From assembly GCA_040752695.1 (NCBI GenBank), contig JBFMGO010000011.1, positions 6,114-70,113 on the forward strand: a stretch of DNA of 64,000 bases. The letters are read 5' to 3'. The DNA is from a bacterium. GTDB lineage: Bacteria > SZUA-182 > DTGQ01. Below, piece by piece: positions 6,789 through 60,416 of this stretch. How positions within the stretch are numbered: the stretch's first letter is position 1; each line of letters opens with the position of its first letter. The notes beneath the pieces are model-generated. The model was not told the DNA's origin and did no database searches. It saw only the letters and a program-made list of their open reading frames with translations. The position numbers and the translations under genes are program-made.

Positions 6789-6793
6789 GCACT

Positions 6794-8059: not shown

Positions 8060-8062
8060 TCA

Positions 8063-39470: not shown

Positions 39471-39489
39471 GATGATTCTCCATACGGTG

Positions 39490-39625: not shown

Positions 39626-39643
39626 GTATCCCTGTCGGAACGG

Positions 39644-40984: not shown

Positions 40985-41072
40985 CGTTTTTGGCTCAGTT
41001 CGAACACTCTTCTTACCTCAGATTCCAAACGTATCACTCAGATTCCCTATAGAATCTGAGTGATACGTTACC

Positions 41073-42092: not shown

Positions 42093-42125
42093 CAGAGAAC
42101 CGCCTCTGATACTCGAAAAACCGGT

Positions 42126-42986: not shown

Positions 42987-43046
42987 ATCAATGTTCTGTC
43001 AATCAACATTCTGCCCATCAACATTCTGCCCATCAATATCCTGCCA
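42987..43046. repeat. Four tandem 15-bp repeats (ATCAACATTCTGCCC) spanning the stop of the toroid-protein gene and the eboB upstream region
   Basis: atcaatgttctgtca / atcaacattctgccc / atcaacattctgccc / atcaatatcctgcca. Confidence 0.85.
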
Positions 43047-44340
43047 GGGCAATTTCCATCGTCAGGATAGCGTAGCTGGTGACCAGAGCCGGATCGTTTT
43101 CCCACCATCGTCCCTGATCATTGACCCAGTAGCCATCCCCTTTTTGTACTGATATGAGCTTGGCCAGAAGTTCCTTGCGCCAGTTTACCTTATCCTGCCG
43201 TCCCTTCACCTGAAACTCCTCTTCCCCATATACGGCCAGAGCCTTGGCCATGGTATGATAATTGTAATAGAGGCCCTGCAGGCCAAGCCCCGGATTTTCT
43301 TCCAGGGTATAGTGATTTCTTATCCAGTCATAAGCAGCCCGAACTCTGGGATCATCCTTTTTTACCTGAGCATAAATGAAGCTCAACAGACCGGCGTAGG
43401 TCATGCTTCCGTAAGACCGGAGAGTGGTCTTGCCATCGGGAAGCTTTTCTTCTCCTGCCTTGCTGCTGCCTGGAAAGTAGACAAATCCTCCATAATTATT
43501 GGGATCACTGCTTGCCCATGGCTGGTCATTGGATTGAGGATTATTCTGACACCGTTCAATAAACCGAAGCGCTGCCTGCCAATCCAAATCCTTCGATTGG
43601 ACCTGCTTTAAGTCGAGCGGCTTTTCCTTTTGGTCGGTTTCCCGCTTCTCACTGACCCGCAGGGCCTCAATGGCAAAATACATATTGGACATATCGGAGT
43701 GTTTTTCCTTACCCCCATAGCCGATCCCGCCGTCATAAAGATTGTCAACAACCCCGGCCTTTCCTTCATCCTGCTGAAGCGAGACCAGAAAATTCCTGGC
43801 CTTCTGAATCGTGTCATTGTATGCAGGATCGCCTGTGGCCACAAGAGCGGTGAGACAAATGGAAGTATTGTACGTCGCAAGGCCCTTGTCAGGAGTATAG
43901 ATTCCTCCATCTGGCTGCACCTTTCCCATAATATACTTCAAGGCTTTTTTAACAGCAGCCGAATACTGGTTGTGACCGGCAGAAGAGGAGGGATCACGCA
44001 AAAAACCAAGGACAGCCAGGGCCGTAACTGCTGGATAGTCAGGGCTGGACCAGGAGCCATCCTTATTCTGTTTGCTTTTTAACCAGTTGAGTCCAATATC
44101 TATAGAGTGTTGGGCTTCTTTCTGCAAAGAGATATCTCTACTCTCCTGCTTGAGCATATTCTTTGAGTCTGTGGTTTTTTTGGGTTCCCCAGCCGGTGGC
44201 TGATCTGTTTTTCCCCATCCGGTCCGAGGGTTGATCGTGGATATCAGGGAGATAAGGAAGATAGTGGCTACAAACTGACAAAGTACTGAAAACTTTCTGG
44301 CAGACGGTTGTTTTTTTGAAATATTTCCATACATATTCAT
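43033..44340 (-). CDS. Secreted prenyltransferase / squalene-cyclase-repeat (alpha-alpha toroid, terpene-cyclase-like) protein
   Basis: Signal peptide (KFSVLCQFVATIFLISLISTIN). Repeated QW-like motifs (QNKDGSWSS, QPDGGIYT, DGGIGYGG, QKGDGYWVNDQGRWW) spaced about 45-50 aa apart, as in terpene-cyclase / protein-prenyltransferase beta-subunit toroids. Confidence 0.55.
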   Translation of the reverse strand: MNMYGNISKKQPSARKFSVLCQFVATIFLISLISTINPRTGWGKTDQPPAGEPKKTTDSKNMLKQESRDISLQKEAQHSIDIGLNWLKSKQNKDGSWSSPDYPAVTALAVLGFLRDPSSSAGHNQYSAAVKKALKYIMGKVQPDGGIYTPDKGLATYNTSICLTALVATGDPAYNDTIQKARNFLVSLQQDEGKAGVVDNLYDGGIGYGGKEKHSDMSNMYFAIEALRVSEKRETDQKEKPLDLKQVQSKDLDWQAALRFIERCQNNPQSNDQPWASSDPNNYGGFVYFPGSSKAGEEKLPDGKTTLRSYGSMTYAGLLSFIYAQVKKDDPRVRAAYDWIRNHYTLEENPGLGLQGLYYNYHTMAKALAVYGEEEFQVKGRQDKVNWRKELLAKLISVQKGDGYWVNDQGRWWENDPALVTSYAILTMEIALAGY

Positions 44341-44850: not shown

Positions 44851-45768
44851 TCACTTGGGTGCAGGCAGTGTTTTTTGCGGTATTTCCTGTTGTATTTCTT
44901 GCGATATTTTTTGCGATACTTCTTGTTGTATTTCCTGCGGTATTTCTTGCATTGCTTTTATCACAGGTGGTGTTTCGTGCGTCACTTTCATCGTAAGAAG
45001 AATATTGGTTCCCACAGGAGGAAGAATCTTTTCATTGCAGGTATATACCGTATCGTCAGCTCCATTTGGCAGGGGATTATTGATAATGGCTACCGGATCT
45101 CTGAAAGTTGCGATTATTGATCCTTCGCTGTCAGCAATGAACTTCCCATCTATGACCTGAGAGCCGGTGAAGGCCCAAAAAGTCTTGTCCATAGGCTTTT
45201 TTTCCATCTGGTCATAAACCAGTTCCTCCCCCCTGACCTTTTTCCTGGTCTTATCCGGCAGATCCCACTCGGCCCATATCTCCAGTGAGTCCCCTTTTGG
45301 AGCGGCAGGATCTCCCTGAAATTTCAGGTTATTTTCGTACTTCAATCCCAACAGGAGGAGAGCTACCTGTATCTGTGAGGGTCTGGCCTCAAGCTTCAGG
45401 ACACTTTCATGCAATTTACCGATTTCATCCCAGCAGGCCAGGTATTCGACTAATCCACTTTGCATATTGACCTGCCCTGAAAGATAGATTTCTCTCTTGC
45501 TTTTATTCAGAATCACCTTTCCGATTCTGAATTCATCAGGACCGATCTGCTGAACAGATGGATTTTTCTCTGCCTGACCTGGAGCGGTCCGGGAGTGAGC
45601 ACCTGGGTCCGGAGCACCTTGAGAAGCTGAATAACCTGCTGAAAAGAAAAGGCAGAATAATACGCTGGTGGCACTGATAATGAACAAGAAGGCCGATCTT
45701 TGACGTATTTGCATATTTTTTCTCATCATGAAAGAATCACCGTTCAGGTTTGAATAGATACCCTGCAA
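44851..45768 (-). CDS. Secreted hypothetical protein with C-terminal (Q-E-I-x)n tetrapeptide repeats
   Basis: Probable start at MMRKNMQIRQRSAFLFIISATSVLFCLFFSAGYSA (signal peptide). The C-terminal QEIPQEIQQEVSQKISQEIQQEIPQK is encoded by seven 12-bp tandem repeats. Confidence 0.45.
   Translation of the reverse strand: MQGIYSNLNGDSFMMRKNMQIRQRSAFLFIISATSVLFCLFFSAGYSASQGAPDPGAHSRTAPGQAEKNPSVQQIGPDEFRIGKVILNKSKREIYLSGQVNMQSGLVEYLACWDEIGKLHESVLKLEARPSQIQVALLLLGLKYENNLKFQGDPAAPKGDSLEIWAEWDLPDKTRKKVRGEELVYDQMEKKPMDKTFWAFTGSQVIDGKFIADSEGSIIATFRDPVAIINNPLPNGADDTVYTCNEKILPPVGTNILLTMKVTHETPPVIKAMQEIPQEIQQEVSQKISQEIQQEIPQKTLPAPK
44877..44960. repeat. Seven tandem 12-bp repeats (GYGRTATTTCYT), in-frame, encoding the (QEIx)n C-terminus of the 305-aa secreted protein
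   Basis: gcggtatttcct gttgtatttctt gcgatatttttt gcgatacttctt gttgtatttcct gcggtatttctt gcattgctttta. Confidence 0.85.
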
Positions 45769-45902: not shown

Positions 45903-46223
45903 TTACTCCTTGCCGGAGGGGTTAGCCTTCAATTCATATTCACGGACCATCTTTCTTACCGCTTCCATGGATTCATCATCCTGGGGCAAGTCTTGTGGCC
46001 GGTTATAGTATATATCCACTAACTCCTTTACCACCGACTCATCCAAAGTCGTTTTCTTCTCTACTGCCGCGCCGCCTGTGTCTGTTCCCTCCGGAACAGT
46101 GGCAGTATTGATTACCTCATCCGCTGGTTCAACATTTACGGCGTCCGCATATGCAGGGTGGAAGCTCAAGAGCAAGAGAAATGCTCCAAAAACTACTGTC
46201 ATGGTTATGAACCGTTTGGCCAT
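45903..46223 (-). CDS. Small secreted acidic protein (hypothetical)
   Basis: Start at the internal ATG with a perfect AAGGAGGTG RBS. Signal peptide MAKRFITMTVVFGAFLLLLSFHPAYA. About 80-aa acidic mature part. Confidence 0.5.
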   Translation of the reverse strand: MAKRFITMTVVFGAFLLLLSFHPAYADAVNVEPADEVINTATVPEGTDTGGAAVEKKTTLDESVVKELVDIYYNRPQDLPQDDESMEAVRKMVREYELKANPSGKE

Positions 46224-46264
46224 AATCACCTCCTTTTTGGTTTTACAAACATGGGCCCGCTCGA

Positions 46265-46975
46265 TTACGCTTTCAATCCTCTTCGCTTGCATTCTATCAA
46301 GCCGAGCAGGCCAAAGCCAAGAAGAAATATAGTCCCGGGCAATGGAACCGCTGACTGCGAAGATGAAGGCTGGAAATCATCCAGATACGTCCAGGTATTG
46401 GCTGAATCGTCCACTCCGTTACCGGCTGAAAGCTTAATACTCAGGGTAAAAGGTGTAGCGTAAACGCCAAAGTCATGTGAATACTGCTGCCAGCCGCTGT
46501 AATAGAGACCATAATAAGGATCGGTGGGATCGTAGGAGTATGGAGCACCTGTTAGTTCATCGAGCTCCAGCCTCGCATTGATAATTTCAGAACCGCTTTC
46601 ATCGTAGAAATTTACCATAAACCGGTCGTTACCGTATCCGTCAGTCGAAAACATATTGTAATAAAAGGAGATTGTTCCTCCCTGAAAGTTTGGGATATCT
46701 TGACTGATCCAATTATTGGTATAACTGCCGCCTCCGGAAAGGCCAGGGCTTGAGAGCAAAGCCATTGAGTTACCATCTACTGCGGTAATATCATAGCTTA
46801 TGCCGTCAAAGGAGACTGTACCACTGGTAACCTGGGAGACAATACCGTTATGTGTCCACCCCGTGAGAATGCCAGAATCTTCAAAGCTGCCGTTAATAAA
46901 AGTGGTAGCGTACGATGTGCCGACAAAACCAACTACCAATAATACAGCCGATATCCAGAGGAAAAACCTTTTCAT
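46265..46975 (-). CDS. PEP-CTERM-like sorting-domain protein (putative exosortase substrate) with N-terminal lectin/jelly-roll-like domain
   Basis: Start at MKRFFLWISAVLLVVGFVGTSYA (signal peptide) with GGAGG RBS. The C-terminus ...SAVPLPGTIFLLGFGLLGLIECKRRGLKA fits the pattern (P-x-P) + hydrophobic TM helix + basic cluster, a variant of the VPEP...RRR PEP-CTERM signal. Confidence 0.55.
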   Translation of the reverse strand: MKRFFLWISAVLLVVGFVGTSYATTFINGSFEDSGILTGWTHNGIVSQVTSGTVSFDGISYDITAVDGNSMALLSSPGLSGGGSYTNNWISQDIPNFQGGTISFYYNMFSTDGYGNDRFMVNFYDESGSEIINARLELDELTGAPYSYDPTDPYYGLYYSGWQQYSHDFGVYATPFTLSIKLSAGNGVDDSANTWTYLDDFQPSSSQSAVPLPGTIFLLGFGLLGLIECKRRGLKA

Positions 46976-47124
46976 GATGTCGAAACCTCCTTTGATAGAG
47001 CGTGAGTGAATGAGAATGAGTAATGATGTATCCAATTCCTTCCCCTGTTGCTTTGAAAAAGCTCGGTACAGACCGCAGGAATTACCCGACCGGTTTGCCG
47101 CGCTCCTGCCGCCCCTCACCACCT

Positions 47125-47214: not shown

Positions 47215-50200
47215 CTAGTGAATGGTGAAATCAGCATTGCTCATATCGGTAATGCTGCGATCACTCGTTGAAGTAACCCTAATCCGGCAGCGTGTTGAAG
47301 ATACGAGCGGCACTGTCCACGAGTACTGTTTGTCAGCACAGACTGCGGTTGAGGTAATTGTCATCCATATACGGCCACCGGTATTATATTCTATCTTCAC
47401 ATAGGTGCCGGGATTACCGGTATAATTCCAGGTGATCTCATAGGTGCTCCCGCCGGTCAATATTTCACCGCCATTCGGGGTTCCCACGGTCAAGGTAGGT
47501 GATACCGCAGAGATGGTAGTGAAACTGAAGGGAACCGTGTCCCCACCCTCTCCACAGCCATTCACCGCTCTTACCTTCCAGGTATACCGGGTGTTTTCAG
47601 CCAAAGCACCAACCGGGACGATAAAAAAGGCAGCAGTAATAGCCGCATTATCGATCACCGATACTCCATGCTCATCCGTCATGGTGAGATGATAAGACAA
47701 GGCTCCCGGAACCGAATTCCAGGTCAAAGTCGGAGTGAGAGAAACATCCACTGCACCATCTGCGGGTGCATGCATCACAACCGCTGGCAGAAGCGGACAT
47801 GTCTCGATAACGTTCACCACCAAAGTGGCAATATCGGTGCTGCCGTCATCGTCGGTTACCCGAAGGGCAACGGTATACATGCCATTACTGCTCCAGGCAT
47901 GCGATTGAATTTGTCCGGTATCTCCTGAAGGCGTGAAGGTGCTGCCGTCATAATTCCAATCCCATTCATAGCTGACAATCGTGTCAGGACTCGATGTGGA
48001 GCCGCTTGCGTCATAAGTACCGCTCTGGCCCTTATCGAGGGATACAGGGCCCGTGATGTGCGCTGTGGGGCCAAGGTCCCTGATGGTAATGGTATGGGAT
48101 ACCGTATCGGTCAAACCATGATTATCGGTAACCGTGAGAGTCACCGCATAGGTGCCGTTATCGTTGAAAGTAAAGACTGGATTCGGGTCGCTGCTGGTAC
48201 CCAGCCCGGCAAAATTCCAGGCCCATCCGCTGATAGGATAGGGGAGGACAGAGGCTGAAATATCGGTGAAGCTTACGCTTGAACCTTCGTCCTGGGGTTC
48301 CGGAGACCAGGTGAATTCCGCCACCGGGCCTAAGACATACTCATGACACACGCCCTGGGCCGGTACTGGTTTGTCCTGTGCCAGGGTAATCCATTGTTCG
48401 TCATACCACACCTTGAGGGTGTAAGTGTCGCCGGGTTGAGCATTCTCATCCGGGCACACTTTCAGGTGATACGTACCGGGAATGTAGTTGGGAATGTAGA
48501 ACTGGACCTGTCTGTCGTTCCCAAAATCCACTTCGTTATAGCTGGTATCAGGGATCTGGCTGCCATTTTTATCGAACACACGGCCTTGTGGATCGGTAAT
48601 CTCCACATCGACAGTCGAACTGGCAAATCCAGCCAGGGCTCCTGACCCGCTTCCAATATCCAGCGAGGCATTCAGTAATGGATCACCTTCCACGCTGGAG
48701 AGCGATGGGATAATGAAGCCGGTAATGAGGGAGGTAATCTGGAACGATACCAATCCGGTTTCATCAGGATCCAGATCAGTCGGGATGAAGTCTTTTATCG
48801 CGACTTCTCCTGCTGCAAGCTGGGCATTGACGAACCGATCGGGGAACAATTCAGCGCTTACCCTGTAGACAGGGATTTCGGATTTATTGGTGACTTTGAT
48901 ACCGAAGGTGAAATCCTGTCCTGCCTGTACAATGTACGGACCGCCAGCAGGCCAGGCCGGATCGTTTACGAAAAACACGGCTTTCAGTTCCGGCTTCCCA
49001 TAGACATCGACCGTTCCGGAATTGCTTGCCTGCAGATTTACATTAAACGGTACCAGAGTGCCATTGACATTGACGGTGACGGTATGCTCTCCTTCCACAT
49101 CGCCGCGCAGCACCCAATCGACACTCTCCTCAGCTCCTGCGAGAATGATACCCGATGGGCCGACCTGCTTCGTAACATCCTGAGGAGTTCCGAATAAATC
49201 CACCAGGGTCAGCTTATCAGCCGGATATACCAAGGTAGCGGTAGTATTAACGATATTGAAGGGGCTTCCTTCAGGTGCGTTATTCTTGATGCGTGCCGAG
49301 ACACTGAAGAATTCCTTCAATAATTTGATTTCACCCGGAATGATGATGAAAGTGTATACCGGATAGACCGGCTCACCAGGGGCTGGCTCTACATAAGTAA
49401 CCGTGCCGCCGACCCAGTAACCGCCGCCGCCACCGCCTCCCAGCGAGTACGTACTGCCAGGGGCAGGATTATTGGGGAGAACGACATTCGGAATGGTAAC
49501 AGGCGCCACCGCAAGTGTTACAACGAAGTCATATACCCAGTAATTATCGGGGTCTTCCAGATCGACGCCGCGCTCCACGATTTCTTCGATAGTCAGGCGC
49601 GTGGAATTCACTTCCTCGACTTCCAGCACTTCACCAGGTAACAGCCGTACTTCGGCGGTATTGAATCCACTGAAAAGACGCAGCGGTTCGGCCTTGGGGA
49701 GATAATGTTCCCGCCAGACGTAAGCCGATCTGCCGCCCGAAGGTACAACGACATTGCGGACCCATCCATCTGCATCGGTAGTCAGGTTCCCTGGGATATC
49801 CTCCAGGACAACCAGAGCATTCGCTAAAGAAGCCGAAGTGGAATCGTCTACCACATGGATGTCCAGGACCGCTGCATAGTAGCTGTACACCAGTACATCG
49901 AAGAAGGATTCCCCAAGGGTATTTTGAGAAGTTATAACCGATGCGGTCTGGGGATAGACTGCCGGAGCAGGCTCACTCCCTGTTCCATCGGGGACATCTA
50001 TCTCAAAATCCAGCGTGGCATGTGAATATCCATCGATTTGCAAAGGTAAAGCACTGGTCATGTTAAACTGCGAGCCTGCCACTCCACCCAGTATAAGAGC
50101 TCCCGTCACACTGACCGGTGCAGATCCATCGTTATCGATGGTCAGGCTATAACTCGCCGTTTTCCCCTCCCAGGCGGTAAGTGTGGGTGCACTGACCCTG

Positions 50201-53200
50201 ATCTTCTCATGCAGGGTAATCTCTCTGTCAGGGGCCGAAGGCAAGCCGTCCGTGTCTTCATTTCCTGCTGCATCTCTCAGCGTGGTTTCACAATAAAAGA
50301 CTTCTCCGGCATTTCTGCCTGTAGTGTCCCAATCATAGGTGTAGCTTCCACCTCCCGCTTCTGCCAATGGTGCGGCAGTTACGACTGGATCACCGCTGTC
50401 GGTCGTAATCGTTACCGTGCCGACTAAGCCGGTTTCGCTATTCTGCTCGGATACCAGTATCCTGACCGTGGAGCCGACTACGTAAGAGTCGTCGGTATCG
50501 GCACCGACCGAAGTGGTCACGGAAGAAATAACAGGAGGCGTGTCATCGATGACAAGAGCTTTGTCTGCCTCGTTATTGGAGGTGTTGGACTCGGTGGGAT
50601 CGGCATCGGATATGACAACCCATACGAGGTGCTGCCCATCTGAAAGACCTGTCGTGTCCCAATTGGCCTGTACCGGTGCCGAGCCGTTTCCTCCGATTGA
50701 AAGGCTCCGGGTTCCTATCAGGTGCCCCGCGTCCTTGACAGTGTCATAAAAGCTCACCTGAGCTGTCGCAGATGTCTGTCCCAGGTTGTGTATCGTTACA
50801 TCAACGAGTACGCCGGTTCCAGACATGATCGGCCCGGCAGGGGTGAGCGTGATATCATTGACCGACACCGTAAGATCAGGCCGTGACCGGACGGTTACGG
50901 ACAAGAATGCTACATCCGTATCCCCGTCTTCGTCAGTTATTCTGACTGCGACGGCGTAAGTGCCAGGGGCTGCCCAGGCATGATTCTGAATTTGCCCTTC
51001 ATCCAGCGAAGGCTGGAAGTTTGTGCCGTTATAGTTCCAATCCCATTCATAAAGGACGATATCATCCGGATTGGAGTCTGTATGACCTGCAGTATAGTGA
51101 GCAAGATCGTCCACCAGGACGAGGGTGTCCCCCATAAGGGATGCCGTGGGAGCAAGATCCGTGACCGTAATGTCGTGGGATACCGCAGATACGGAGCCGT
51201 CATCGTCGGTCACGGTCAGGGTCACGGTATAGATACCGTCATCCGGAATGATAAAGCCGGGATTTCGGTCATTACTGGTTCCGAGACCGCCAAAATCCCA
51301 GGACCAGTTCACTATGGCATCGGGGTAAGATGTGGAAGTATCCGTAAAGCTTATCGCTGACCCCTCAGCCTGTGGATCGGGATTCCAGGTAAAGCCGGCA
51401 GCCGGTCCCAGGTCATTCACGGTAACGGTAGCTGTATCGGTATCATCGAGCAGGGAATCCGATACTTTCAGCCCGACCGTATAGATGCCGTTATCCATCC
51501 AGGTATGAGTCGGCTTGACATCTGTGGAATCATCGAAGGCGCCGTCATTATCAAGATCCCAGGCATAAGACATGGCATCGCCATTGGGCTCGAAGGAGCC
51601 GCTGCCATCCAGGATAATGGCACTGCCCTCATCCACGGTGTACGGTCCACCCGCCTCAGCCACCGGCGGCTGGTTGGCATATACCGTAACCGTAGTGTAA
51701 ACGGGGGTTGACACCATGGGCTGGCAATCAATCCCGATCTGGCAGCCAAGGGGGTTAAAAGCCCCGTTATCCCAAACCTTAAGGCCGATCAGGTAAAGCC
51801 CCGGTGTAGAGAAAGTGAAAGTCGCAGTGGGGCTTGTCGTGTCAAGATCCACGTCATCGAACCAGACACCATCGCTATCTAGATCCCATTGATAGCGGGA
51901 AATACTGTCGCCAAGATCGATGTCGTAGGAGCCTGAGGCATCCAGGATAAAGGGGATACCGGCAGTCACGTGATAAGAGCCGCCATGCATGGCAAAGGGT
52001 GCATGAGGCGGTTCGGCTACCGTTACCTCTCTGAAGTCGATATCGGTCTGGACCGGGTCATTGTCATCGGTAACCCTGAGCTTGACTGTAAAGATCTGCG
52101 GCGGATCGCCTGCGTCACCGGGATGCGGATCAGCGTAGGTGTATCTGGCATTGACATCGGAAGGATCGGAAGTGGTGAAATCCCAGATCCCATCGCCATC
52201 GAAATCCCACTCGTACCTGACGATTCTCCTCGATGGGTCCATATGGAACGATCCTGAAGCATCAAAGGAAAGCTCCATATCATAGGCCCAGATGATATCA
52301 TCCCCTGCGTCAGCCACGGGCGGCTGCACAAAGAGGGTGGGTGTCAGCATAATGACTGCCCAGGAAGTGGAAAAGCCAGTACCATAGCTTACATTCCAGT
52401 AACCGCTGCTGTTCTGCTGATCCACGATTCTCTTTTTGACACCGGTTGTCGGATCATTGTACCAGTCAAGCCCTGTTGCACTCAGCGTTACTACCGGATC
52501 CGGCAAGGCAAGGCGTAAAGCCTTGACCAGGGCGTAAGTACCATAATAATTGCCATTCTGCCAGAACCAGTTATTGGCGATATAATCTTCTGCGGTTCTC
52601 CATCGTGAGTCGGATGTGCGTTTATCGCAGAAGGCGAGTTGAACCATACCCGATGGGGTAAGTGCTACTCCATTTCCTGCACCCGTGTAACCAAATCCGG
52701 TTCCATCGTAACTGTAATTTAACCAGACATTGTTTCGGTTTTTGACCCATTGGGGTATATTGATACCAAAGTTGTCCTCAGCAGCGAGCATGCCGATGGC
52801 TGCCCACTGACAGGCGGAGTTGTCCGGATGTTCGTTCCAGTTATATCGCCAGCCGCCGCCAACTGAGGAACTGTCATACTGGCCCCAGGCGTACATATCC
52901 ACCATATCGGTGAGAATATGGTAGTAGAAGCGTCCCTTGATATTAGTGCCTCCGGTTGTGGCAAAGGCTAAAGGTGCATTGGAGGAGGCAATGGCATCCA
53001 TGACCATACCGCCCTGATAAATCGGATATCCGTCATTCACCTGGATACCTATTCCATTCCCGTTGGTGTCAGGGTTTCCGTATGTCTGGTTGCCGATATT
53101 GGCTGAAGAAAGCCTGGTGAACATGAAGGCAAAACCTTTGTTCACTGTCTCTACATAAGGATTCTCCTGATTATCGCCATCCTGAAGGTGGCCGTTGATC

Positions 53201-56200
53201 TCAAAAGATTGAATTGCCGAACCGGTCGGGGATGCATAATAAGAGCTATACGATGTCCACTTCCCATCGCCTTTATCCTGGTTTTTGTGAAGCCACCACA
53301 GGCCCTCGTCAATGGCGATGTTGGTCTTTGTATCAAGATTGTTGGGCTTGACGACAACATAATAGTAATCCGTGCCGATCAGGCCGCTGCTGTCCCATAC
53401 AGTAAGGGTTGCCGTATAGGGAGTGCCATCAGCGGAATTCGGATAGGTATGGCTGGCTTCAATCGCATATTTGTTGCTGACCGAAGCCGGTGTTGCTGGA
53501 TAGAGAGCCGATCCGTCACCGAAATTCCACTGGTAGGTGAGGTTGCCCGCATCCCTGACAATGGCTTTCAGCCTGATGCTTCTGCCGTTATAGGTTTCAT
53601 GGGGAATAGTGGGATCACCGGCCCTCCATGGCACACAAATGACATCCGGTGCCAGATTCGTGGCCACATTCACCGTGGCCGAAGCCGTAGCTGTTTGCCC
53701 TGCTCCATCAACCACGGTCAGAGTAGCGGTGTAGATCCCCGCAGTCGAATAGGTATAAAACGGCTTTCTTCCCACAACGTCCATATCGTTGGTGAAATTT
53801 CCGTCACCGTCGCTGTCCACCGAGTTATCTGCATCCCAGAGATATTTGACAATGCCATAGTCATCGGTCGAACTGCCGCCGTTGAAGTAAGCCGGAGGAC
53901 CGCCTGCACCGGCGTTGTAAGGACCTCCTGCATCGGCCACCGGCGGATCTGCGGCTGCAATGACATGAACGGTCAGGGTATCGGAGTCGGACTGCAGGAC
54001 ATTATCATACACGGTAAGAGTAACCGTGTAATCTCCGGGATTCCAATAAATATGGGAAGGGGTCTTTCCCCATCCCGTGGTGCCGTCCCCGAAATTCCAT
54101 TCATATTTATAGATACCTAAATCGTCCGCGGAGTTCCCGCCGTTGAAAATGACCGGCCAGCAGCCCTCGGTAGTGATGTCGCTGCCTGCCTCTGCTGTCG
54201 GGGGATCACCATTGGTCAGATTGACCGTGGCCGTATCGATGACCGACTGCAAGACATGGTCGGTCACTCTGAGAGCTATCGTATAGCTTCCGGCTGCGGA
54301 AAAAACATGCGTAGCCGCAGCACCCGTATCCCCTGACGGATCAAAGGTTCCATCATAATCCCAATCCCACTCGTACGTATAGATGCCATGATCGTCGGTC
54401 GAAGCAGAGCCGTCAAAATCAATGGTCCAGGTTCCTTCGAAGGCATCCGTTTCATTCCCGCTCTTGTCCGGTCCGGCATTGGCAACAGGCGCGGCATTGA
54501 CTTGAGTGGTGACGCTCGAAGAATCGGTATCCGTCTGCATGGATTGATCATAGACCGTAAGATTAATCGTGTGGCTCCCCAGACCGTAGAAACGGTAGCT
54601 GGGTGCCTGGCCGCCAGCGATTTCCTTCAGATTGTCTATGACGAATGTTCCTGAGTATACATCCACGCCCCGTTTCAAGGAGGCAGCATTGCTATAAGTT
54701 GAATCATACAAGAGGATCCAATCCGAAGATCCCAAAGAGCGATAATAATATCGTGCTCCCTGCGTCTCTTTGAGCTCGATGCGGACTTCGTACCAGGTGT
54801 TGTAGGCATAATCATAACCTGTATCGCCTCTGCTCGATCCACTTTCATAAATATAAAGATTGCCGCCATTGAAATAGATGGCATAAGGCATATAGCTGTA
54901 CTGGTAATTGGCACCGGTATCCTTGAACCCGATCATGACATGACCACCGCTATGTTTGATCCTGGCTTCAAAGGCCATTCCCTTAGCCCTGCTATAGGTA
55001 TCCTTGCTGAAGAGATAGCGCTGTCCCCAGGAGCTGACACCTGCTATGGAAATCTCATTATTCTGGGCCACTCCAGCGCCGCTGTATACCCACTTCCGAT
55101 TATTGATAACCGTACCGTCGAAGGTATCGGTACCCAGATCCCAGACATAGTAAATATTCGATTCATTATCAAAAGAGCCGGAACCATCAAGGGTAGCTGT
55201 CCATCCACCTTCAAAGGCGCTGCCCGTATTTTCATCTACCGCATAGGGTCCGCCTGCATCTGCCTGAGGAGGATCACCCTGGTTCAAAGCGACTGTCAAG
55301 GTGTCACTATGGGTCTGAAGAGCATGGTCCGTTACTCTGAGGGCTACGGTATAAATCCCCGCACTCGTCCAGGTGTGTATGCCTGTTGAACCTGTGGCAT
55401 CGAAGGTTCCGTCGTTATCGTAATCCCACTCGTAGAGATAAATGCCATAGTCGTCACCGGAGCCTGAAGCATCGAAATTCACTGTCCAGGTACCATCGGA
55501 CGCATCCGCTTCATCCTTCGTCTGATCCAATCCCGCCTCGGCAGACGGAATATCACCGGCTGTGGTGACGAGCGTGAAGCTATCCGTATCGGTTTGACCG
55601 GCACGGTCAAGGACGGTCAAATCCGCACTAAACACTCCGATACCACGGTAAAGAGTAAAATCGGAGGTGACACCGGCCGTACTTTCCTGAAAGTCGTCCA
55701 TAGAATAGGTTCCGCTAGCGACGACTATGCCTTTTCTCAAAACCGTATCCCCGGTAGTATAACCGGAACGGTAAATCTCGTACCAGACCGTGCTTCCGGA
55801 GGGCCGGTAAGAGTATACCGCCCCTGTCTCCAACAGCTCGATCTTAAAATCGTACCAGGTATTATAGGAGATGGTATATCCCGTAGAACCACGGGAAGAA
55901 CTATTTTCATAAATGTAGATAGTTCCGCCGGAAATATAAAATTCGTAAGGGAATTGGGTGTACGTAAAGTTTGTGGTGCTGCTGTTCTTGAAACCGAACA
56001 TACATTCACCGCTTCCGGCTGCCTTGATGCTGGCCTCGAAGGTTTGCCCTTTCACCTTGGGGAAGGTGGCCTTGGTAACCATATAGCGGTTACCCCAACT
56101 GCCGGCTCCAGTCAGGGAGACTGCATCGTTCTGGGTAATGCCGCCGTTGGTGTACCATTTTCCGTCTTGAAAGGCAGTGCCGGTAAAGGTATCCGCGCCA

Positions 56201-58425
56201 AAGTTCCAGGTATATTTTCTGATCTCCACATCATCGGAAGAAGAAGATCCATTCAGGCTGAAGGTCCAGCCGCCTTCTGCGGCCACCGATTCATCTGCGC
56301 TGTAAGGCCCGCCGGCATCCGCCTGCGGTGCAGCTCCCGGCTGCATGGTCATGGGTACTATGCCGGCAGCGCTCTGACCGGCTGCATCTTTTACCGTCAT
56401 ATCCACATCATACGTTCCACCGCTAAAAGCATGCTGGACAGTCTGTCCCTCCCCGGTTGCCGTGACCGAAAAATTGTCGAAGATGGCATCGGTCCTGTAG
56501 GTGGAAAATCCAACCTTGCCCGTACTGAAGGTAGAGTCTTCAAAGGAGAAAAGAAACACCCCGTCCAGATAAAAATCATGCTTGGAGCCTGTACAGACGA
56601 TTTTGACGTGATAGGTGAACCCGGTATCGATGGGATAAGAAGCGAGAACTGAAGGAAGATCATATTCGAATAACGATGTGGCGCTGTTATTCACCCGTTT
56701 GTAAAAAAGAACATCGTTATTTCCCCTTCCCCTCAGGATAAACTCGTAGTTGTTACGGTCATCCCTGGCCTTGAATATGATATGGGCCTCCTCGCCGGAG
56801 CCGGTTATCATAAAGACATCCGCCTCGATGGTTATGTTCGTATCGTATATCTTATCGAACAAGGTCCAGGTGCGGTCAAGACTGGTATTCGTCTGGCGAT
56901 AGGAGAAGCTGCCAGCGATGGGAGATGCGGTGTACATTTCCCAGGTACCTGCAAAGACATCCCACCCGTTGGCTGAGCCGTCTTCAAAATCATCCGTGCA
57001 GCCATCGCCAAGATTCCACCGGTAAGAAACGATGCCTTCCGTATCAGTGGCATAATGTGTGCCGTCCAGGGTCAGGCTCCAAAGGCCGTTATCGGCAAGT
57101 GCCTCGCCAAACGTTACCGCTGTTGTATCCACAGCCGGCGCATCGCCTTCGACAATAACCACGGCAACAGCATAATCACTTTTCCCGTCATTATCCGTAA
57201 CCTTTAAGGTGGGGAAGAATTTTCCTTCAGTTGCATACACATGGCTGGTGGCTCCGACACTCGCCCCTGAACCGGATTCGGGAGCAGAGCCGTCACCGAA
57301 ATTCCAGACCCATGAAGCCAGGGTCCCATCGGAATCGGCAGAGCCGGAACCATCCAGATTGGCAGTGCCTCCTTTCGATATGGTTTGCTCAAGAGGACTG
57401 ACCACAGCGGCAGGCACGCCAGCCGGAGGCCCGATTGGCTGGGCGGATATGCACATGGTGTTATAACTGCCCGTTGTGCCGATGGTTACCGGAGTCCCGA
57501 AGGTGCCATCTCCATTGCCTGGATAATATAAGACCTGGCGGCCACCATAGGTAGTGACCACGAGATCGAGATTTCCATTTCCATCAAAGTCATAGCCGTC
57601 ATACGCACCGTGGTTATTGAAATCGAGGCTGCTTACGTAAACGGCAGCCTGAAACGAATTGTCTCCATTGCCCTTAAAAAAGTAAGGATTACCTCCACTG
57701 CCGCTGTTGACGATAAGATCCACTTTTCCATCATTATCGAAATCACCTGCTGCCAGGCCGTATGGATCATCCCCTGTATCTCCAACATAAATGGCGGAAG
57801 CAAAAGTCCCGTCTCCATTTCCCGGATGTATATAGGTATACCCATTCGAATGCCGGGCCCTGGCAAAGTCCAGATTCCCATCGTTATTAAAGTCGGCCAC
57901 ATCCATGCCACGGCCATAGTCTCCCAGATTCAACTCGGTTTTGGTGAAGTTGCCCTGACCATCGCCCAGAAAGACCCCTGTATAGGGATTATTCACATTG
58001 GCAAGAAAATCCATGTTGCCGTCATGATTGAAATCTCCCGAAGCCGCATCCATAGCCCAGGAATTTGCATTACTCAACGTGCCAACCATGCCTGCTCTAG
58101 AAAAGGTATTGTCTCCATTATTTAAAAAGAGATAAAAATAGGCGACACTTCCCGTGCCTCCGCCAGCGATAAAATCCATATCGCCGTCACTATCGAAGTC
58201 ATTGATGGTCAGGGCACGGGAGTTATACGCACCCAGATAATCTATGGTGCCATAATCGCTGAAAGTGCCATCACCATTGCTCCTGGCATAGTAAATGTGA
58301 GAGCTGTCATCCAGAGCGATAATAAAATCCGCTGCCTGACTTTTACCTATGGCATGTGAAAAGAATAACACACCGATCAATCCTGCTAACAGCAGTCTTG
58401 ATATTCCCTGGCACCTTCGTCTCAT
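47215..58425 (-). CDS. Giant (3736 aa) secreted multidomain surface/adhesin-like protein: FG-GAP beta-propeller, multiple PKD/Ig-like, LamG/DUF1080-like jelly rolls, internal alpha-alpha toroid (terpene-cyclase-like) domain, CARDB, two C-terminal Fn3-like domains
   Basis: Uninterrupted 11,211-nt ORF. Signal peptide MRRRCQGISRLLLAGLIGVLFFSHAIGKSQA. At least six FG-GAP/VCBS repeats (DFDSDGDMDFIAGG, GDFNHDGNMDF, ADFNNDGNLDF, GDFDNDGKVDLIV...). PKD signatures (WNFGDGS, WDFGDG..., YTVTLTVTD). DUF1080-like block ...TLFDKIYDTNITIEADVFMIT...EFILRGRGNNDVLFYKRV. Toroid block LWWLHKNQDKGDGKW...QNSSGYW. CARDB-like PDLTVSVNDITLTP...VTIHNLG. Fn3-like C-terminal domains. Confidence 0.85.
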   Translation of the reverse strand: MRRRCQGISRLLLAGLIGVLFFSHAIGKSQAADFIIALDDSSHIYYARSNGDGTFSDYGTIDYLGAYNSRALTINDFDSDGDMDFIAGGGTGSVAYFYLFLNNGDNTFSRAGMVGTLSNANSWAMDAASGDFNHDGNMDFLANVNNPYTGVFLGDGQGNFTKTELNLGDYGRGMDVADFNNDGNLDFARARHSNGYTYIHPGNGDGTFASAIYVGDTGDDPYGLAAGDFDNDGKVDLIVNSGSGGNPYFFKGNGDNSFQAAVYVSSLDFNNHGAYDGYDFDGNGNLDLVVTTYGGRQVLYYPGNGDGTFGTPVTIGTTGSYNTMCISAQPIGPPAGVPAAVVSPLEQTISKGGTANLDGSGSADSDGTLASWVWNFGDGSAPESGSGASVGATSHVYATEGKFFPTLKVTDNDGKSDYAVAVVIVEGDAPAVDTTAVTFGEALADNGLWSLTLDGTHYATDTEGIVSYRWNLGDGCTDDFEDGSANGWDVFAGTWEMYTASPIAGSFSYRQTNTSLDRTWTLFDKIYDTNITIEADVFMITGSGEEAHIIFKARDDRNNYEFILRGRGNNDVLFYKRVNNSATSLFEYDLPSVLASYPIDTGFTYHVKIVCTGSKHDFYLDGVFLFSFEDSTFSTGKVGFSTYRTDAIFDNFSVTATGEGQTVQHAFSGGTYDVDMTVKDAAGQSAAGIVPMTMQPGAAPQADAGGPYSADESVAAEGGWTFSLNGSSSSDDVEIRKYTWNFGADTFTGTAFQDGKWYTNGGITQNDAVSLTGAGSWGNRYMVTKATFPKVKGQTFEASIKAAGSGECMFGFKNSSTTNFTYTQFPYEFYISGGTIYIYENSSSRGSTGYTISYNTWYDFKIELLETGAVYSYRPSGSTVWYEIYRSGYTTGDTVLRKGIVVASGTYSMDDFQESTAGVTSDFTLYRGIGVFSADLTVLDRAGQTDTDSFTLVTTAGDIPSAEAGLDQTKDEADASDGTWTVNFDASGSGDDYGIYLYEWDYDNDGTFDATGSTGIHTWTSAGIYTVALRVTDHALQTHSDTLTVALNQGDPPQADAGGPYAVDENTGSAFEGGWTATLDGSGSFDNESNIYYVWDLGTDTFDGTVINNRKWVYSGAGVAQNNEISIAGVSSWGQRYLFSKDTYSRAKGMAFEARIKHSGGHVMIGFKDTGANYQYSYMPYAIYFNGGNLYIYESGSSRGDTGYDYAYNTWYEVRIELKETQGARYYYRSLGSSDWILLYDSTYSNAASLKRGVDVYSGTFVIDNLKEIAGGQAPSYRFYGLGSHTINLTVYDQSMQTDTDSSSVTTQVNAAPVANAGPDKSGNETDAFEGTWTIDFDGSASTDDHGIYTYEWDWDYDGTFDPSGDTGAAATHVFSAAGSYTIALRVTDHVLQSVIDTATVNLTNGDPPTAEAGSDITTEGCWPVIFNGGNSADDLGIYKYEWNFGDGTTGWGKTPSHIYWNPGDYTVTLTVYDNVLQSDSDTLTVHVIAAADPPVADAGGPYNAGAGGPPAYFNGGSSTDDYGIVKYLWDADNSVDSDGDGNFTNDMDVVGRKPFYTYSTAGIYTATLTVVDGAGQTATASATVNVATNLAPDVICVPWRAGDPTIPHETYNGRSIRLKAIVRDAGNLTYQWNFGDGSALYPATPASVSNKYAIEASHTYPNSADGTPYTATLTVWDSSGLIGTDYYYVVVKPNNLDTKTNIAIDEGLWWLHKNQDKGDGKWTSYSSYYASPTGSAIQSFEINGHLQDGDNQENPYVETVNKGFAFMFTRLSSANIGNQTYGNPDTNGNGIGIQVNDGYPIYQGGMVMDAIASSNAPLAFATTGGTNIKGRFYYHILTDMVDMYAWGQYDSSSVGGGWRYNWNEHPDNSACQWAAIGMLAAEDNFGINIPQWVKNRNNVWLNYSYDGTGFGYTGAGNGVALTPSGMVQLAFCDKRTSDSRWRTAEDYIANNWFWQNGNYYGTYALVKALRLALPDPVVTLSATGLDWYNDPTTGVKKRIVDQQNSSGYWNVSYGTGFSTSWAVIMLTPTLFVQPPVADAGDDIIWAYDMELSFDASGSFHMDPSRRIVRYEWDFDGDGIWDFTTSDPSDVNARYTYADPHPGDAGDPPQIFTVKLRVTDDNDPVQTDIDFREVTVAEPPHAPFAMHGGSYHVTAGIPFILDASGSYDIDLGDSISRYQWDLDSDGVWFDDVDLDTTSPTATFTFSTPGLYLIGLKVWDNGAFNPLGCQIGIDCQPMVSTPVYTTVTVYANQPPVAEAGGPYTVDEGSAIILDGSGSFEPNGDAMSYAWDLDNDGAFDDSTDVKPTHTWMDNGIYTVGLKVSDSLLDDTDTATVTVNDLGPAAGFTWNPDPQAEGSAISFTDTSTSYPDAIVNWSWDFGGLGTSNDRNPGFIIPDDGIYTVTLTVTDDDGSVSAVSHDITVTDLAPTASLMGDTLVLVDDLAHYTAGHTDSNPDDIVLYEWDWNYNGTNFQPSLDEGQIQNHAWAAPGTYAVAVRITDEDGDTDVAFLSVTVRSRPDLTVSVNDITLTPAGPIMSGTGVLVDVTIHNLGQTSATAQVSFYDTVKDAGHLIGTRSLSIGGNGSAPVQANWDTTGLSDGQHLVWVVISDADPTESNTSNNEADKALVIDDTPPVISSVTTSVGADTDDSYVVGSTVRILVSEQNSETGLVGTVTITTDSGDPVVTAAPLAEAGGGSYTYDWDTTGRNAGEVFYCETTLRDAAGNEDTDGLPSAPDREITLHEKIRVSAPTLTAWEGKTASYSLTIDNDGSAPVSVTGALILGGVAGSQFNMTSALPLQIDGYSHATLDFEIDVPDGTGSEPAPAVYPQTASVITSQNTLGESFFDVLVYSYYAAVLDIHVVDDSTSASLANALVVLEDIPGNLTTDADGWVRNVVVPSGGRSAYVWREHYLPKAEPLRLFSGFNTAEVRLLPGEVLEVEEVNSTRLTIEEIVERGVDLEDPDNYWVYDFVVTLAVAPVTIPNVVLPNNPAPGSTYSLGGGGGGGYWVGGTVTYVEPAPGEPVYPVYTFIIIPGEIKLLKEFFSVSARIKNNAPEGSPFNIVNTTATLVYPADKLTLVDLFGTPQDVTKQVGPSGIILAGAEESVDWVLRGDVEGEHTVTVNVNGTLVPFNVNLQASNSGTVDVYGKPELKAVFFVNDPAWPAGGPYIVQAGQDFTFGIKVTNKSEIPVYRVSAELFPDRFVNAQLAAGEVAIKDFIPTDLDPDETGLVSFQITSLITGFIIPSLSSVEGDPLLNASLDIGSGSGALAGFASSTVDVEITDPQGRVFDKNGSQIPDTSYNEVDFGNDRQVQFYIPNYIPGTYHLKVCPDENAQPGDTYTLKVWYDEQWITLAQDKPVPAQGVCHEYVLGPVAEFTWSPEPQDEGSSVSFTDISASVLPYPISGWAWNFAGLGTSSDPNPVFTFNDNGTYAVTLTVTDNHGLTDTVSHTITIRDLGPTAHITGPVSLDKGQSGTYDASGSTSSPDTIVSYEWDWNYDGSTFTPSGDTGQIQSHAWSSNGMYTVALRVTDDDGSTDIATLVVNVIETCPLLPAVVMHAPADGAVDVSLTPTLTWNSVPGALSYHLTMTDEHGVSVIDNAAITAAFFIVPVGALAENTRYTWKVRAVNGCGEGGDTVPFSFTTISAVSPTLTVGTPNGGEILTGGSTYEITWNYTGNPGTYVKIEYNTGGRIWMTITSTAVCADKQYSWTVPLVSSTRCRIRVTSTSDRSITDMSNADFTIH
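52330..53340 (-). other. Internal alpha-alpha toroid (prenyltransferase/squalene-cyclase-repeat-like) domain within the giant protein
   Basis: Motifs resemble those of the 43033..44340 secreted protein. Coordinates are approximate. Confidence 0.4.
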
Positions 58426-58976: not shown

Positions 58977-60416
58977 CTACAGGCTGAATTTTTCGATCTT
59001 GCTCCGAAGGGTGTTCCTGCTGATGCCGAGCACCTTGGAAGCTTTGACCTGATTGTTGTTTACCTTTTGCAGTGTGCGTTTTATCATGGCCTTTTCCAGA
59101 CCATCAGTCAGGCGGGTAGCAATATCGTCCGCCTCCTGATCGATGAGCCGGTCGATGCTCGGGCTCAGCATATCCTCGAATATTTCCGCATAATCGTCAA
59201 TCTGATCGATACAGACTGAAGGGTGCTTTTTCTTTTCCATCATCTCGCCGATCGGAAGATGTTCGGGCAGGATGACATCGCCTTTGCACAGAACGATGGC
59301 CGATTGGATTACGTTTTCCAACTCGCGGATATTTCCCGGCCAATGATACTGGGTGAGCATCACCATGGTGGAATGGGCTATGCCGTTAATTTCTTTTTTG
59401 AGTTTATGGCGGTATTTCAGCAAAAAGTAGTCGGCCAATAAGGCAATATCTTCGGGCCGCTCTCTGAGCGGGGGTAAAAAGAAGGAGATAACTTTGAGCC
59501 GGTAGAAAAGATCTACCCGAAAGATTCCCTCTTTCACGGCCTGGACAAGGCTTTTGTTGGTAGCGGCAATAACCCGCACATCCACCTTGATGCTTTCGTG
59601 CCCGCCGACCCGCTCGAATACCTGATCCTGCAAGACCCTCAGCACCTTGCTCTGGGCAGACAGGGCCATATCGCCGATCTCGTCCAGAAAGATGGTTCCG
59701 CCATTGCACTGCTCGAACTTGCCTACCTTTTTATTCAGAGCACCGGTAAAAGAGCCTTTCTCATGGCCGAAAAGTTCACTTTCGAGCAGTTGTTCGGGAA
59801 TGGCTGCGCAATTTATGGCCAGGAACTGTTTATCACTCCTCAGACTGTGATGATAAATAGCGCGGGCGATCAGTTCCTTTCCTGTTCCGCTTTCTCCCTG
59901 GATCAGGACGGGAGCGTCGCTTTGGGCCACCTGACCAACCATTTTATAGATTTCGAGCATTTCCCGGCTGTTGCCGATGATGGTATCGGCCTCAAAAGAC
60001 CCGTGAGCAAAGGTTCCCGGATTTATGGCAATTCGCCTTTCCGTTTCTGAATCCAGAGAGAGGGCCGTATTGATGATATCCAGCATTTTGGGAATCTCGA
60101 AGGGCTGGGTGATATAGTCGTAAGCCCCCAGCTTCATAGTCTCGATGGCTGAATTGGTTGAAACATGATTGGCAACGACCATTACCGGCAAACGGGGTGT
60201 CTTTTTTTTGATAAGCCGCAACACGTCGATACCCGAAATTTTCGGCAGGGAAATATCCAGAATGACCAGATCAGGCTTTTCCTTATCGTGCAGATCAATA
60301 GCCTCCGGACCGTCATTAGCCTGGAAAACGATATACCCCTGGTTTTCCAGGGCAACCTTGAGATTTTTTAAAGAGTCTACTTCGTCATTGGCCAGAATTA
60401 TTTTGCGTCTTCTCAT
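58977..60416 (-). CDS. Sigma-54-dependent Fis-family response regulator (NtrC-like: REC + AAA+ sigma54 activator + HTH)
   Basis: REC (DLVILDISLPKISG), Walker A GESGTGKE, GAFTGA-like loop (EKGSFTGA), Walker B and R-finger regions. C-terminal Fis-type HTH (KASKVLGISRNTLRSKI). Confidence 0.9.
   Translation of the reverse strand: MRRRKIILANDEVDSLKNLKVALENQGYIVFQANDGPEAIDLHDKEKPDLVILDISLPKISGIDVLRLIKKKTPRLPVMVVANHVSTNSAIETMKLGAYDYITQPFEIPKMLDIINTALSLDSETERRIAINPGTFAHGSFEADTIIGNSREMLEIYKMVGQVAQSDAPVLIQGESGTGKELIARAIYHHSLRSDKQFLAINCAAIPEQLLESELFGHEKGSFTGALNKKVGKFEQCNGGTIFLDEIGDMALSAQSKVLRVLQDQVFERVGGHESIKVDVRVIAATNKSLVQAVKEGIFRVDLFYRLKVISFFLPPLRERPEDIALLADYFLLKYRHKLKKEINGIAHSTMVMLTQYHWPGNIRELENVIQSAIVLCKGDVILPEHLPIGEMMEKKKHPSVCIDQIDDYAEIFEDMLSPSIDRLIDQEADDIATRLTDGLEKAMIKRTLQKVNNNQVKASKVLGISRNTLRSKIEKFSL

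Follow-up and report, generated by a model that had tools for sequence, protein, structure and literature searches.

A squalene-hopene cyclase-like toroid embedded in a giant exported PKD protein encoded beside ebo genes

The locus and the giant gene

We describe a giant gene, found in a 64,000-nucleotide (nt) stretch of bacterial DNA (contig JBFMGO010000011.1, positions 6,114 to 70,113; hereafter the window), whose product carries near its centre a domain resembling the toroid of terpene cyclases. The gene (47215..58425, minus strand, as are all features of the giant and its downstream neighbours given below) encodes an exported multidomain protein of 3736 amino acids (aa). It is followed on the same strand, in this order, by genes for a PEP-CTERM-type protein, a 129-aa exported protein, a YdjY-domain protein and a second, standalone toroid, and then by eboB, eboC, eboF, eboD and eboE. 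By inspection, every product from the giant through the standalone toroid has a signal peptide.

The 11.2-kb open reading frame (ORF) begins with an ATG, about 9 nt after a GGGAG Shine-Dalgarno sequence, and runs without interruption. The N-terminus, MRRRCQGISRLLLAGLIGVLFFSHAIGKSQA followed by AD, which can be divided as MRRRCQGISR-LLLAGLIGVLFF-SHAIGKSQA and then AD, has the n-, h- and c-region layout of a Sec signal peptide when the translation is inspected (aa 1-31, 58333..58425). No long near-identical DNA repeats were found within the gene; those present are short and divergent (79% over 42 nt at best), which makes an assembly error caused by repeats unlikely. The orthologues at loci L002-L006 and L014, which match aa 1-2515 colinearly at 57-72% identity, are all single ORFs, as are more distant relatives in Myxococcota and Lentisphaeria, and some of these intact orthologues and relatives sit on Mb-scale contigs or chromosomes. 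Thus, two claims of the initial annotation, that the ORF is intact and that it encodes a secreted-type protein with a signal peptide followed by a series of domains, are borne out.

The domain layout was assigned with Pfam and a locally iterated profile hidden Markov model (HMM) of the PKD domain. Behind the signal peptide lies an FG-GAP/VCBS repeat region, a putative beta-propeller (aa 32-330, 57436..58332; Pfam FG-GAP_3, E 1.2e-36, 6 stretches). Sixteen PKD domains were assigned (PKD_4, E 1.7e-143, at least 13 stretches). Three of them (aa 440-1305, 54511-57108) are each split behind the WxFGD strand by a nested module of about 170 aa, as delimited by the iterated HMM: the first (aa 440-692, 56350..57108) by a jelly-roll-like insert (about aa 478-655) with a weak, sub-threshold match to 3keto-disac_hyd (PF06439, E 0.006), and the other two (aa 705-952, 55570..56313, and aa 1058-1305, 54511..55254) by paralogous copies of one module, here called module X (about aa 745-918 and aa 1098-1268). 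The module X profile had no match in PDB, and its Pfam matches were all sub-threshold. Four tandem PKD domains (aa 1323-1690, 53356..54459; Pfam PKD_4/PKD and the local HMM) lead to the alpha/alpha toroid (aa 1695-2033, 52327..53343). Five further tandem PKD domains follow (aa 2041-2510, 50896..52305; Pfam and HMM), so that the toroid is flanked on both sides by complete PKD domains, and here the part conserved among the orthologues ends.

The remainder comprises a variable region specific to the window (aa 2515-3365, 48331..50883) and a C-terminal part (47218..48309), in which two more PKD domains (aa 3373-3537) precede an Fn3/Big_5-like domain (aa 3566-3634) and a final domain of about 95 aa. 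The variable region gave weak, sub-threshold Pfam matches, CARDB-like at aa 2516-2620 and CarboxypepD_reg-like at about aa 2858-2913; none was obtained for aa 2953-3382 (about 430 aa). The 850 aa of the variable region had no counterpart among 78 related host proteins (see below), and the PKD pairs flanking it resemble each other; it looks like an insertion into an ancestral PKD array. With its PKD and FG-GAP arrays and its signal peptide, the giant has the features of giant adhesin-like exported proteins.

Fold and ancestry of the embedded toroid

The toroid segment (aa 1690-2035) matched no Pfam family (E<=10) and no NCBIfam family, and gave no meaningful sequence match in PDB. Specifically, PF13243, PF13249 and TIGR01787 were not matched, nor was PF00432 (protein prenyltransferase beta subunits), and a trimmed profile of 39 toroid sequences found nothing among the PDB sequences at E<=10. 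The fold was predicted with AlphaFold2 (AF2): given 45 homologues, the model reached a predicted local distance difference test (pLDDT) score of 94.7 and a predicted template modelling (pTM) score of 0.93, and comprised twelve helices in six hairpins, an (alpha/alpha)6 toroid. A model made from the single sequence (pLDDT 32) was discarded. The best Foldseek matches were squalene-hopene cyclase (SHC) and MstE (E 1.5e-4 to 3.4e-4), and its closest counterparts in fold among solved structures are class II cyclases, drimenyl diphosphate synthase and the monodomain meroterpenoid cyclase MstE among them.

The ancestry was traced through the standalone toroid of the window (435 aa, 43033..44340, MEW5801298.1), for which the NCBI name is [quoted passage not shown]. 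This protein matches Pfam SQHop_cyclase_C (E 8.7e-12) and SHC sequences in PDB (E 1.7e-7; 9.5e-11 with a profile), and matches PF00432 below threshold (22.9 bits; cutoff 26.5). Although the two toroids share only about 24% identity, hhalign related their profiles at 98.2% probability (E 4.5e-14) with the first profile and at 99.0% (E 6.5e-18, 299 columns) with larger alignments of both families. As the standalone toroid matches SHC and the embedded toroid is homologous to the standalone one, the embedded toroid belongs, as a highly divergent member, to the terpenoid-cyclase/prenyltransferase toroid superfamily; we regard it as a diverged single-domain relative of the SHC beta domain and as a new domain family without a Pfam model. 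The terpene-cyclase-like toroid proposed in the initial annotation therefore holds on the evidence of the AF2 model, the Foldseek matches, the hhalign result and the QW-like motifs described below, and the proposed check that the region should model as an alpha-alpha toroid was passed with the 45-homologue model. Here "terpene-cyclase-like" refers to fold and ancestry, not to chemistry. The second toroid protein that had been noted about 3 kb away beside the ebo genes is likewise present: it lies 2.9 kb from the stop codon of the giant, directly upstream of eboB.

The resemblance to the class II cyclases SHC and oxidosqualene cyclase (OSC) thus consists of the QW-like motifs, the homology via the standalone protein and an Asp kept on the helix that bears DxDD in SHC. 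The differences are that SHC and OSC have a beta-gamma pair of domains whereas the giant has one, that no direct HMM match links them, that DxDD is replaced by D-N-S-A, and that SHC and OSC are cytoplasmic or membrane-monotopic whereas the toroid of the giant is exported within a 3736-aa PKD-rich protein. MstE (6sbb) demonstrates that a single toroid of about 340 aa suffices, as in the single domain of the giant. The substrates of MstE and of SsDMS (8zg0) are prenylated aromatics or farnesyl diphosphate, the same class of chemistry as in the ebo/thallusin pathway; however, their identity to the embedded toroid is only 9-13%, with no match at the sequence level, their catalytic residues could not be mapped onto it, and both are cytoplasmic and not parts of giant proteins. 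The closest demonstrable relative is the standalone family, which is also exported, occurs in the same loci and shares Tyr, Asp and Lys residues predicted to lie in the pocket; it differs in being larger, in having a Pfam match, in being paired with a YdjY gene and in not being fused to PKD arrays.

Two other toroid classes were compared. The thioester domains of alpha2-macroglobulin (A2M) and of complement C3, C4 and C5 are likewise toroids of this fold class, situated between beta-sandwich domains of a very large exported protein, and show that a toroid can serve non-enzymatically, for binding or capture. The initial annotation had named an A2M-like thioester domain as an alternative, while noting that no CGEQ motif was seen. 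A regular-expression search for CxEQ over the entire 3736-aa protein found none, so there is no thioester. Moreover, no Cys is conserved in the family, no A2M, MG or CUB Pfam domain was matched in the giant, the toroid stands between complete PKD domains, the cyclases score higher structurally, and the trail of homology leads to SHC; an A2M- or complement-like protease trap is accordingly extremely improbable. The six-hairpin glycosidases (GH76, GH15-like and GH8) and the N-acylglucosamine and cellobiose 2-epimerases have no sequence relationship to the toroid of the giant, in which no recognisable catalytic pair was found, and the conserved neighbours of the giant are metabolite genes, not glycan genes.

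Conserved residues of the toroid

Residue numbers of the toroid segment are converted to those of the protein by adding 1689. The QW motif of the cyclases is [FYW][LIV]xxxQxxxGxW, and QW-like motifs occur at aa 1705-1723 and aa 2000-2012, including a canonical copy (IVDQQNSSGYW, aa 2000-2010) and one that is longer by one residue (WLHKNQDKGDGKW, aa 1711-1723). Among 39 toroid sequences (mean identity about 50%), 37 positions are invariant, and the toroid is the most conserved part of the giant. The invariant set includes a DxNxNG loop, R171, D179-N180-S181, Q184, W185, Q240, E257, K279 and many Trp and Tyr residues (segment numbering); Y114, Y172, D179, Y224, Y272 and K279 are common to the embedded and standalone families. 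From the alternation of inner and outer helices, the invariant residues are predicted to line one mouth of the barrel. The invariant DxNxNG loop (NPDTNGNGIG, aa 1784-1793, 53047-53076) lies in a beta-hairpin insertion of the toroid and looks like a calcium-binding loop.

The DxDD general-acid motif of SHC is absent from the embedded toroid. In its place stands an invariant D-N-S (aa 1868-1870, in the context H-P-D-N-S-A, aa 1866-1871). The profile alignment of the standalone family to SHC is gapless here and puts H-S-D-L-S-N-T on Y-P-D374-V-D376-D377-T; through both profile alignments, D1868 is matched with D374 of SHC, S1870 with the general acid D376 and A1871 with D377. In an alternative register, no more than one Asp is preserved. 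A by-eye alignment in which the invariant Asp was the general acid D376 was dropped, because the gapless profile alignment puts the Asp on D374 and the Ser on D376. The Asp on this helix is invariant in both families, and position 177 of the segment is Asp in 24% of the embedded family, giving D-x-D-N. Among 79 toroid sequences no Cys is conserved (C183 is Ala in 49% and C244 is Asp in 48%), and therefore there is no prenyltransferase-type zinc site of Asp, Cys and His.

Distribution and gene linkage

The embedded toroid was searched for with phmmer among 1.84 billion representative sequences, which gave 1,217 clusters at E<=1e-3 and 406 at E<=1e-30; the family comprises about 1,200 clusters at 50% identity in at least eight phyla. 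A species-level scan (one genome per species) gave 325 relatives, and 78 loci were kept for comparison. These include Desulfobacterota, Gammaproteobacteria (among them tubeworm endosymbionts and Chromatiaceae), Planctomycetota, Verrucomicrobiota, Lentisphaerota, Myxococcota, Nitrospirota and Gemmatimonadota. The hosts are nearly all PKD-rich proteins of 800-5,500 aa, the complete ORFs being mostly 2,200-5,300 aa, and are annotated publicly as "PKD domain-containing protein". In 64 of the 78 host proteins, module X precedes the toroid by a few hundred residues, and a homologous FG-GAP region is present in 46. Since the architecture is conserved across hosts, a toroid within a giant is a conserved unnamed family rather than a one-off mosaic. 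That such toroids are unusual in giant adhesin-like proteins, as the initial annotation had it, is true of their annotation and not of their occurrence in nature.

We then compared the gene neighbourhoods. Of the 78 loci, 11 have one or more ebo genes no farther than 10 kb from the giant; over the same distance, 11 have a standalone toroid gene, 15 a YdjY gene and 20 any of these. When all neighbours were clustered, the most recurrent families included YdjY and the standalone toroid; next came eboF, eboB, small PEP-CTERM proteins, eboE, eboC, a VTT/DedA-family protein, an O-methyltransferase, myo-inositol-1-phosphate synthase (Ino1) and a pair of histidine kinase and sigma-54 regulator. A Geobacter locus (L054) repeats the order of the window with gaps of 20-60 nt: giant, PEP-CTERM, YdjY, toroid, eboD, eboB, eboE and eboF. 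Elsewhere the order differs, the ebo genes lying upstream of the giant at L003, L014 and L044, downstream in the window, L005 and L054, and on both sides at L004. Two cultured strains, Desulfobacter curvatus DSM 3379 (L004, NZ_KB892900.1) and Geobacter sp. OR-1 (L032, NZ_BAZF01000009.1), have the giant toroid protein, ebo genes and the standalone toroid. The ebo-linked hosts L023, L044 and L067 have neither the FG-GAP region nor module X; as the host architecture varies among the ebo-linked loci, the constant element is the toroid.

Chance does not account for the linkage: ebo clusters occur in about 2.7% of species-level genomes (10.64898/2026.05.21.724671), from which fewer than 0.1 chance adjacencies were estimated among the 78 loci. 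A further explanation is that the giant is a generic adhesin or spacer in which the toroid is purely structural, the ebo linkage being synteny inherited without function. The PKD/FG-GAP composition is typical of adhesin-like proteins, the ebo-linked loci are concentrated in Desulfobacterota, and lineage-specific synteny does exist in the data, for instance the housekeeping genes mentioned below. Nevertheless, gene order and orientation around the giant vary between ebo-linked loci, the host architecture varies while the toroid is constant, and the toroid, with its 37 invariant residues, is the most conserved part of the protein, so that we consider a purely structural toroid improbable. As for the proposal in the initial annotation that the two toroids share a ligand, their homology and the recurrence of the ebo link in varied gene orders speak for a shared ligand, though not for any one class of it (isoprenoid, glycolipid or glycan).

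The standalone toroid was followed further by a scan of metagenomes, in which at least 583 relatives were found; neighbourhoods were taken from 80 loci (L079-L158). The standalone family has more than 4,000 clusters at 90% identity at E<=1e-20 among the candidates scored. At 47 of the 80 loci, the standalone toroid is directly preceded by a YdjY gene on the same strand, the two forming a two-gene cassette. True ebo genes follow the standalone toroid in about 10 of the 80, and a giant with an embedded toroid is present in 4. The genes at L079 and L083 run ino1, ydjY, toroid, eboB and so on; with ydjY and the toroid between ino1 and eboB, the cassette sits inside the operon. In this variant operon Ino1 occurs in the place of EboD, which parallels the Actinomycetota-type ebo clusters (10.64898/2026.05.21.724671). 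The arrangement ino1-ydjY-toroid-eboB-eboC-eboF was observed at L079:1-3804, L083:141-8268 and L098, and also at L004, L018 and L067. EboA was not detected among the window ORFs scanned; the idea that YdjY and the toroid replace EboA was rejected, because an operon that carries them (L105) also has EboA (NF035938, 170 bits). At a further type of locus, represented by L134, the housekeeping genes ftsY, aroB, lpxA and infC follow the cassette, which is lineage synteny and uninformative.

In the window, the cassette consists of the YdjY-domain gene (44851..45768; NCBIfam NF040466, 146.5 bits against a cutoff of 50) and the standalone toroid gene. No known function was found in the papers searched for the namesake YdjY of Escherichia coli. 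The ebo block (37033..42968; Pfam and NCBIfam) comprises eboB (TatD-like, 42126-42968; Pfam), eboC (UbiA-like, 41073-42092; NCBIfam EboC, 117 bits, below the cutoff of 250), eboF (phosphodiesterase family, 39644-40984; Pfam), eboD (3-dehydroquinate synthase-like, 38217-39470; NCBIfam NF004852, 499.7 bits, cutoff 333) and eboE (37033-38220; NCBIfam EboE, 356 bits, cutoff 250), so that the ebo core of eboB, eboC, eboE and eboF is present together. Between the giant and the cassette lie the gene for the PEP-CTERM-type exported protein, directly downstream of the giant (46265..47122; weak Pfam and NCBIfam PEP-CTERM matches just below cutoff), the product of which has a signal peptide and a C-terminal tail of VPLP, a transmembrane segment and KRR, and that for the 129-aa exported protein (45903..46292), which belongs to no Pfam or NCBIfam family.

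Possible role of the toroids

In 2016 the ebo cluster was described as encoding the synthesis of an isoprenoid-cyclitol compound (PMC5133447). [quoted passage not shown] A preprint of May 2026 assigned the biosynthesis of thallusin and saccharoquinoline, which are farnesylated and cyclised quinolines, to ebo genes and showed that EboC farnesylates hydroxyquinaldic acids; no dedicated terpene cyclase was identified, and cyclisation by EboC was only speculated upon (bioRxiv 10.64898/2026.05.21.724671). The clusters, which occur in thousands of bacterial genomes, had been of unclear role for about ten years, and their connection with thallusin-type farnesylated quinolines is very recent; how the product is cyclised and what becomes of it after export are questions that the field still faces. 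Toroids, YdjY proteins and giant PKD proteins are not mentioned in these three sources (PMC5133447, PMC6282210 and 10.64898/2026.05.21.724671). The setting itself has parallels in Nostoc (ScyD/E/F) and in Pseudomonas fluorescens NZI7 (ORFs of the EDB cluster), where the ebo core lies beside genes for lineage-specific Sec-exported proteins, which act on the product once it is exported, in association with capsule or exopolysaccharide (EPS) genes (PMC6282210). The accessory proteins of the window, namely the toroids and the YdjY-domain, PEP-CTERM and giant PKD proteins, differ from these and are not described for ebo systems in the literature cited.

We tentatively propose, with a probability of about 0.45, that the toroid of the giant is a specific pocket for an ebo-derived or related amphipathic prenylated metabolite, displayed on a giant envelope protein. 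The ebo enzymes would make a prenylated cyclitol-derived metabolite and deliver it to the periplasmic side. A small periplasmic toroid and a YdjY protein, built into ebo operons of the Desulfobacterota type, would act there, the standalone toroid receiving or processing the amphipathic metabolite at the outer face of the inner membrane. The giant, Sec-exported to the envelope or the extracellular space and composed of the FG-GAP region, a PKD array with inserted beta-modules, the central toroid and a second PKD array, would bind the same molecule or a close derivative through its toroid, and its PKD domains would serve as a long stalk on which the bound metabolite may be retained, displayed or sensed, whether at the cell surface or within the matrix. 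Binding is preferred over canonical cyclisation because the general acid is missing, an invariant Ser standing in its position, and because an inner helix carries an invariant Lys. The exported YdjY-domain protein and SHC-like toroid encoded in the Desulfobacterota-type ebo operon, together with the toroid-bearing PKD giants that travel with it, would thus be concrete candidates for the periplasmic and extracellular handling of the ebo product, and there are cultured strains with this arrangement.

Several observations weigh against this proposal. Only 14% of the loci have ebo genes within 10 kb of the giant, and as the ebo-linked loci are mostly from Desulfobacterota, the independent events are fewer than 11. 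As a rule, no ebo genes adjoin the YdjY-toroid cassette; its range thus exceeds that of ebo, and the primary ligand could be another isoprenoid. Since EboC of the window scores below the NCBIfam cutoff, the product here may differ from thallusin. The placement of the invariant residues in a pocket is a prediction from the helix topology, and such dense invariant polar residues would also fit an enzyme. Finally, the C-terminus of the giant has no recognisable sorting signal.

The enzymatic explanation is that the toroids are non-canonical class II meroterpenoid cyclases acting outside the cytoplasm, which cyclise the farnesyl chain attached by EboC, the domain of the giant being a tethered copy. 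Such an activity would supply the step that is missing from the thallusin preprint, in which there is no dedicated cyclase, and it accords with the class II cyclases (drimenyl diphosphate synthase and MstE among them) as nearest solved folds, with the position of the standalone toroid inside ebo/ino operons, with the Asp of the DxDD helix that is invariant in both families, with the many invariant polar and aromatic residues and with the D-x-D-N variant found in 24% of the family. Against it, the best profile alignment turns the general acid D376 into an invariant Ser and D377 into Ala or Asn, an invariant Lys on an inner helix would be unusual in a carbocation cavity, most YdjY-toroid cassettes have no adjacent ebo genes, and the thallusin producers of the Bacteroidota have plain eboABCDEF operons with no toroid reported (10.64898/2026.05.21.724671). 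We regard cyclisation by the toroids as unlikely, though a serious alternative. In its most far-reaching form, which we hold to be unlikely, the exported toroids would be the missing cyclising or product-finishing enzymes of a widespread ebo pathway variant, and the giant a version tethered to the surface of anaerobic sediment bacteria, where it would synthesise a thallusin-like meroterpenoid or retain it covalently; if true, this would be an extracytoplasmic class II-type cyclase with a non-DxDD mechanism, fused into a giant adhesin-like scaffold.

It is also conceivable that the toroid is a glycan-binding or glycan-cleaving domain of the six-hairpin type, and the giant a matrix protein or enzyme for the exopolysaccharide of the adjacent XrtA/PEP-CTERM locus. 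The large EPS locus at about 1-36 kb of the window (GT4 proteins, Wzc-like and Wza-like proteins and a PEP-CTERM outer-membrane protein), the small PEP-CTERM proteins that flank the giant at 8 other loci, and the weak matches of the inserted modules to lectin- and glucanase-type families are in keeping with this explanation. However, unlike the ebo, YdjY and standalone toroid genes, none of the EPS genes of the window recurs beside the giant at the 78 related loci; the sequence ancestry, with QW-like motifs present, leads to the SHC family and not to glycosidases; and the toroid showed no conserved pair of neighbouring acidic residues like that of GH76. A glycan-directed toroid is thus distinctly unlikely, and the case for the giant as a functional part of the EPS/PEP-CTERM locus is weakened.

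Other features of the window and related loci

The XrtA/PEP-CTERM-type EPS locus occupies positions 1-36351 of the window and includes genes for a B12-binding radical SAM protein (3150-4664), glycosyltransferases of family GT4 (e.g., 15103-16344 and 21887-23140), an O-antigen-ligase-like protein (17631-18911), a Wzc-like tyrosine autokinase (29621-31807), a Wza-like exporter (31861-32703) and a PEP-CTERM-system outer-membrane protein (34849-36351). Three of its ORFs (9020-10657, 545 aa; 28172-29527, 451 aa; 32802-34871, 689 aa) had no NCBIfam match at E<=1e-5.

Directly upstream of the giant lies a gene for an NtrC-type sigma-54-dependent response regulator (58977..60416, minus strand; Pfam and NCBIfam), and homologous regulators adjoin the giant at L004, L006 and L018. 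Sigma-54-like -24/-12 elements were noted about 240 nt upstream of the ATG of the giant (TGGCATAATTTTTGT, 58666-58680, minus strand) and in the 510-nt gap before the standalone toroid (TGGTATGATTTTTGC, 44816-44830, minus strand); a scan of the window for such promoters gave 72 matches against 56.5 +/- 8.4 expected, which is not above chance.

The VTT/DedA-family membrane protein was found near the giant, YdjY or toroid genes at L006, L018, L035, L044 and L067, and the window has no homologue. It has a very weak match to the model of the undecaprenyl-phosphate transporter UptA, which may hint at the handling of a polyprenyl lipid. Upstream of the cassette at L134, and divergent from it (5284-9129), lie genes for a second, longer SQHop_cyclase_C-like toroid (518 aa), a cupredoxin of the plastocyanin/azurin family and an Nramp-like transporter; a similar arrangement was observed at L104, L125, L137, L139 and L145. 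In gammaproteobacterial loci, including those of tubeworm endosymbionts (L011, L016, L025, L027, L029, L031, L035, L038, L040, L045, L048, L055, L057 and L059), ORFs with RHS repeats, cut by the edge of the locus, lie directly upstream of the giant; these may reflect lineage synteny or a second giant gene.

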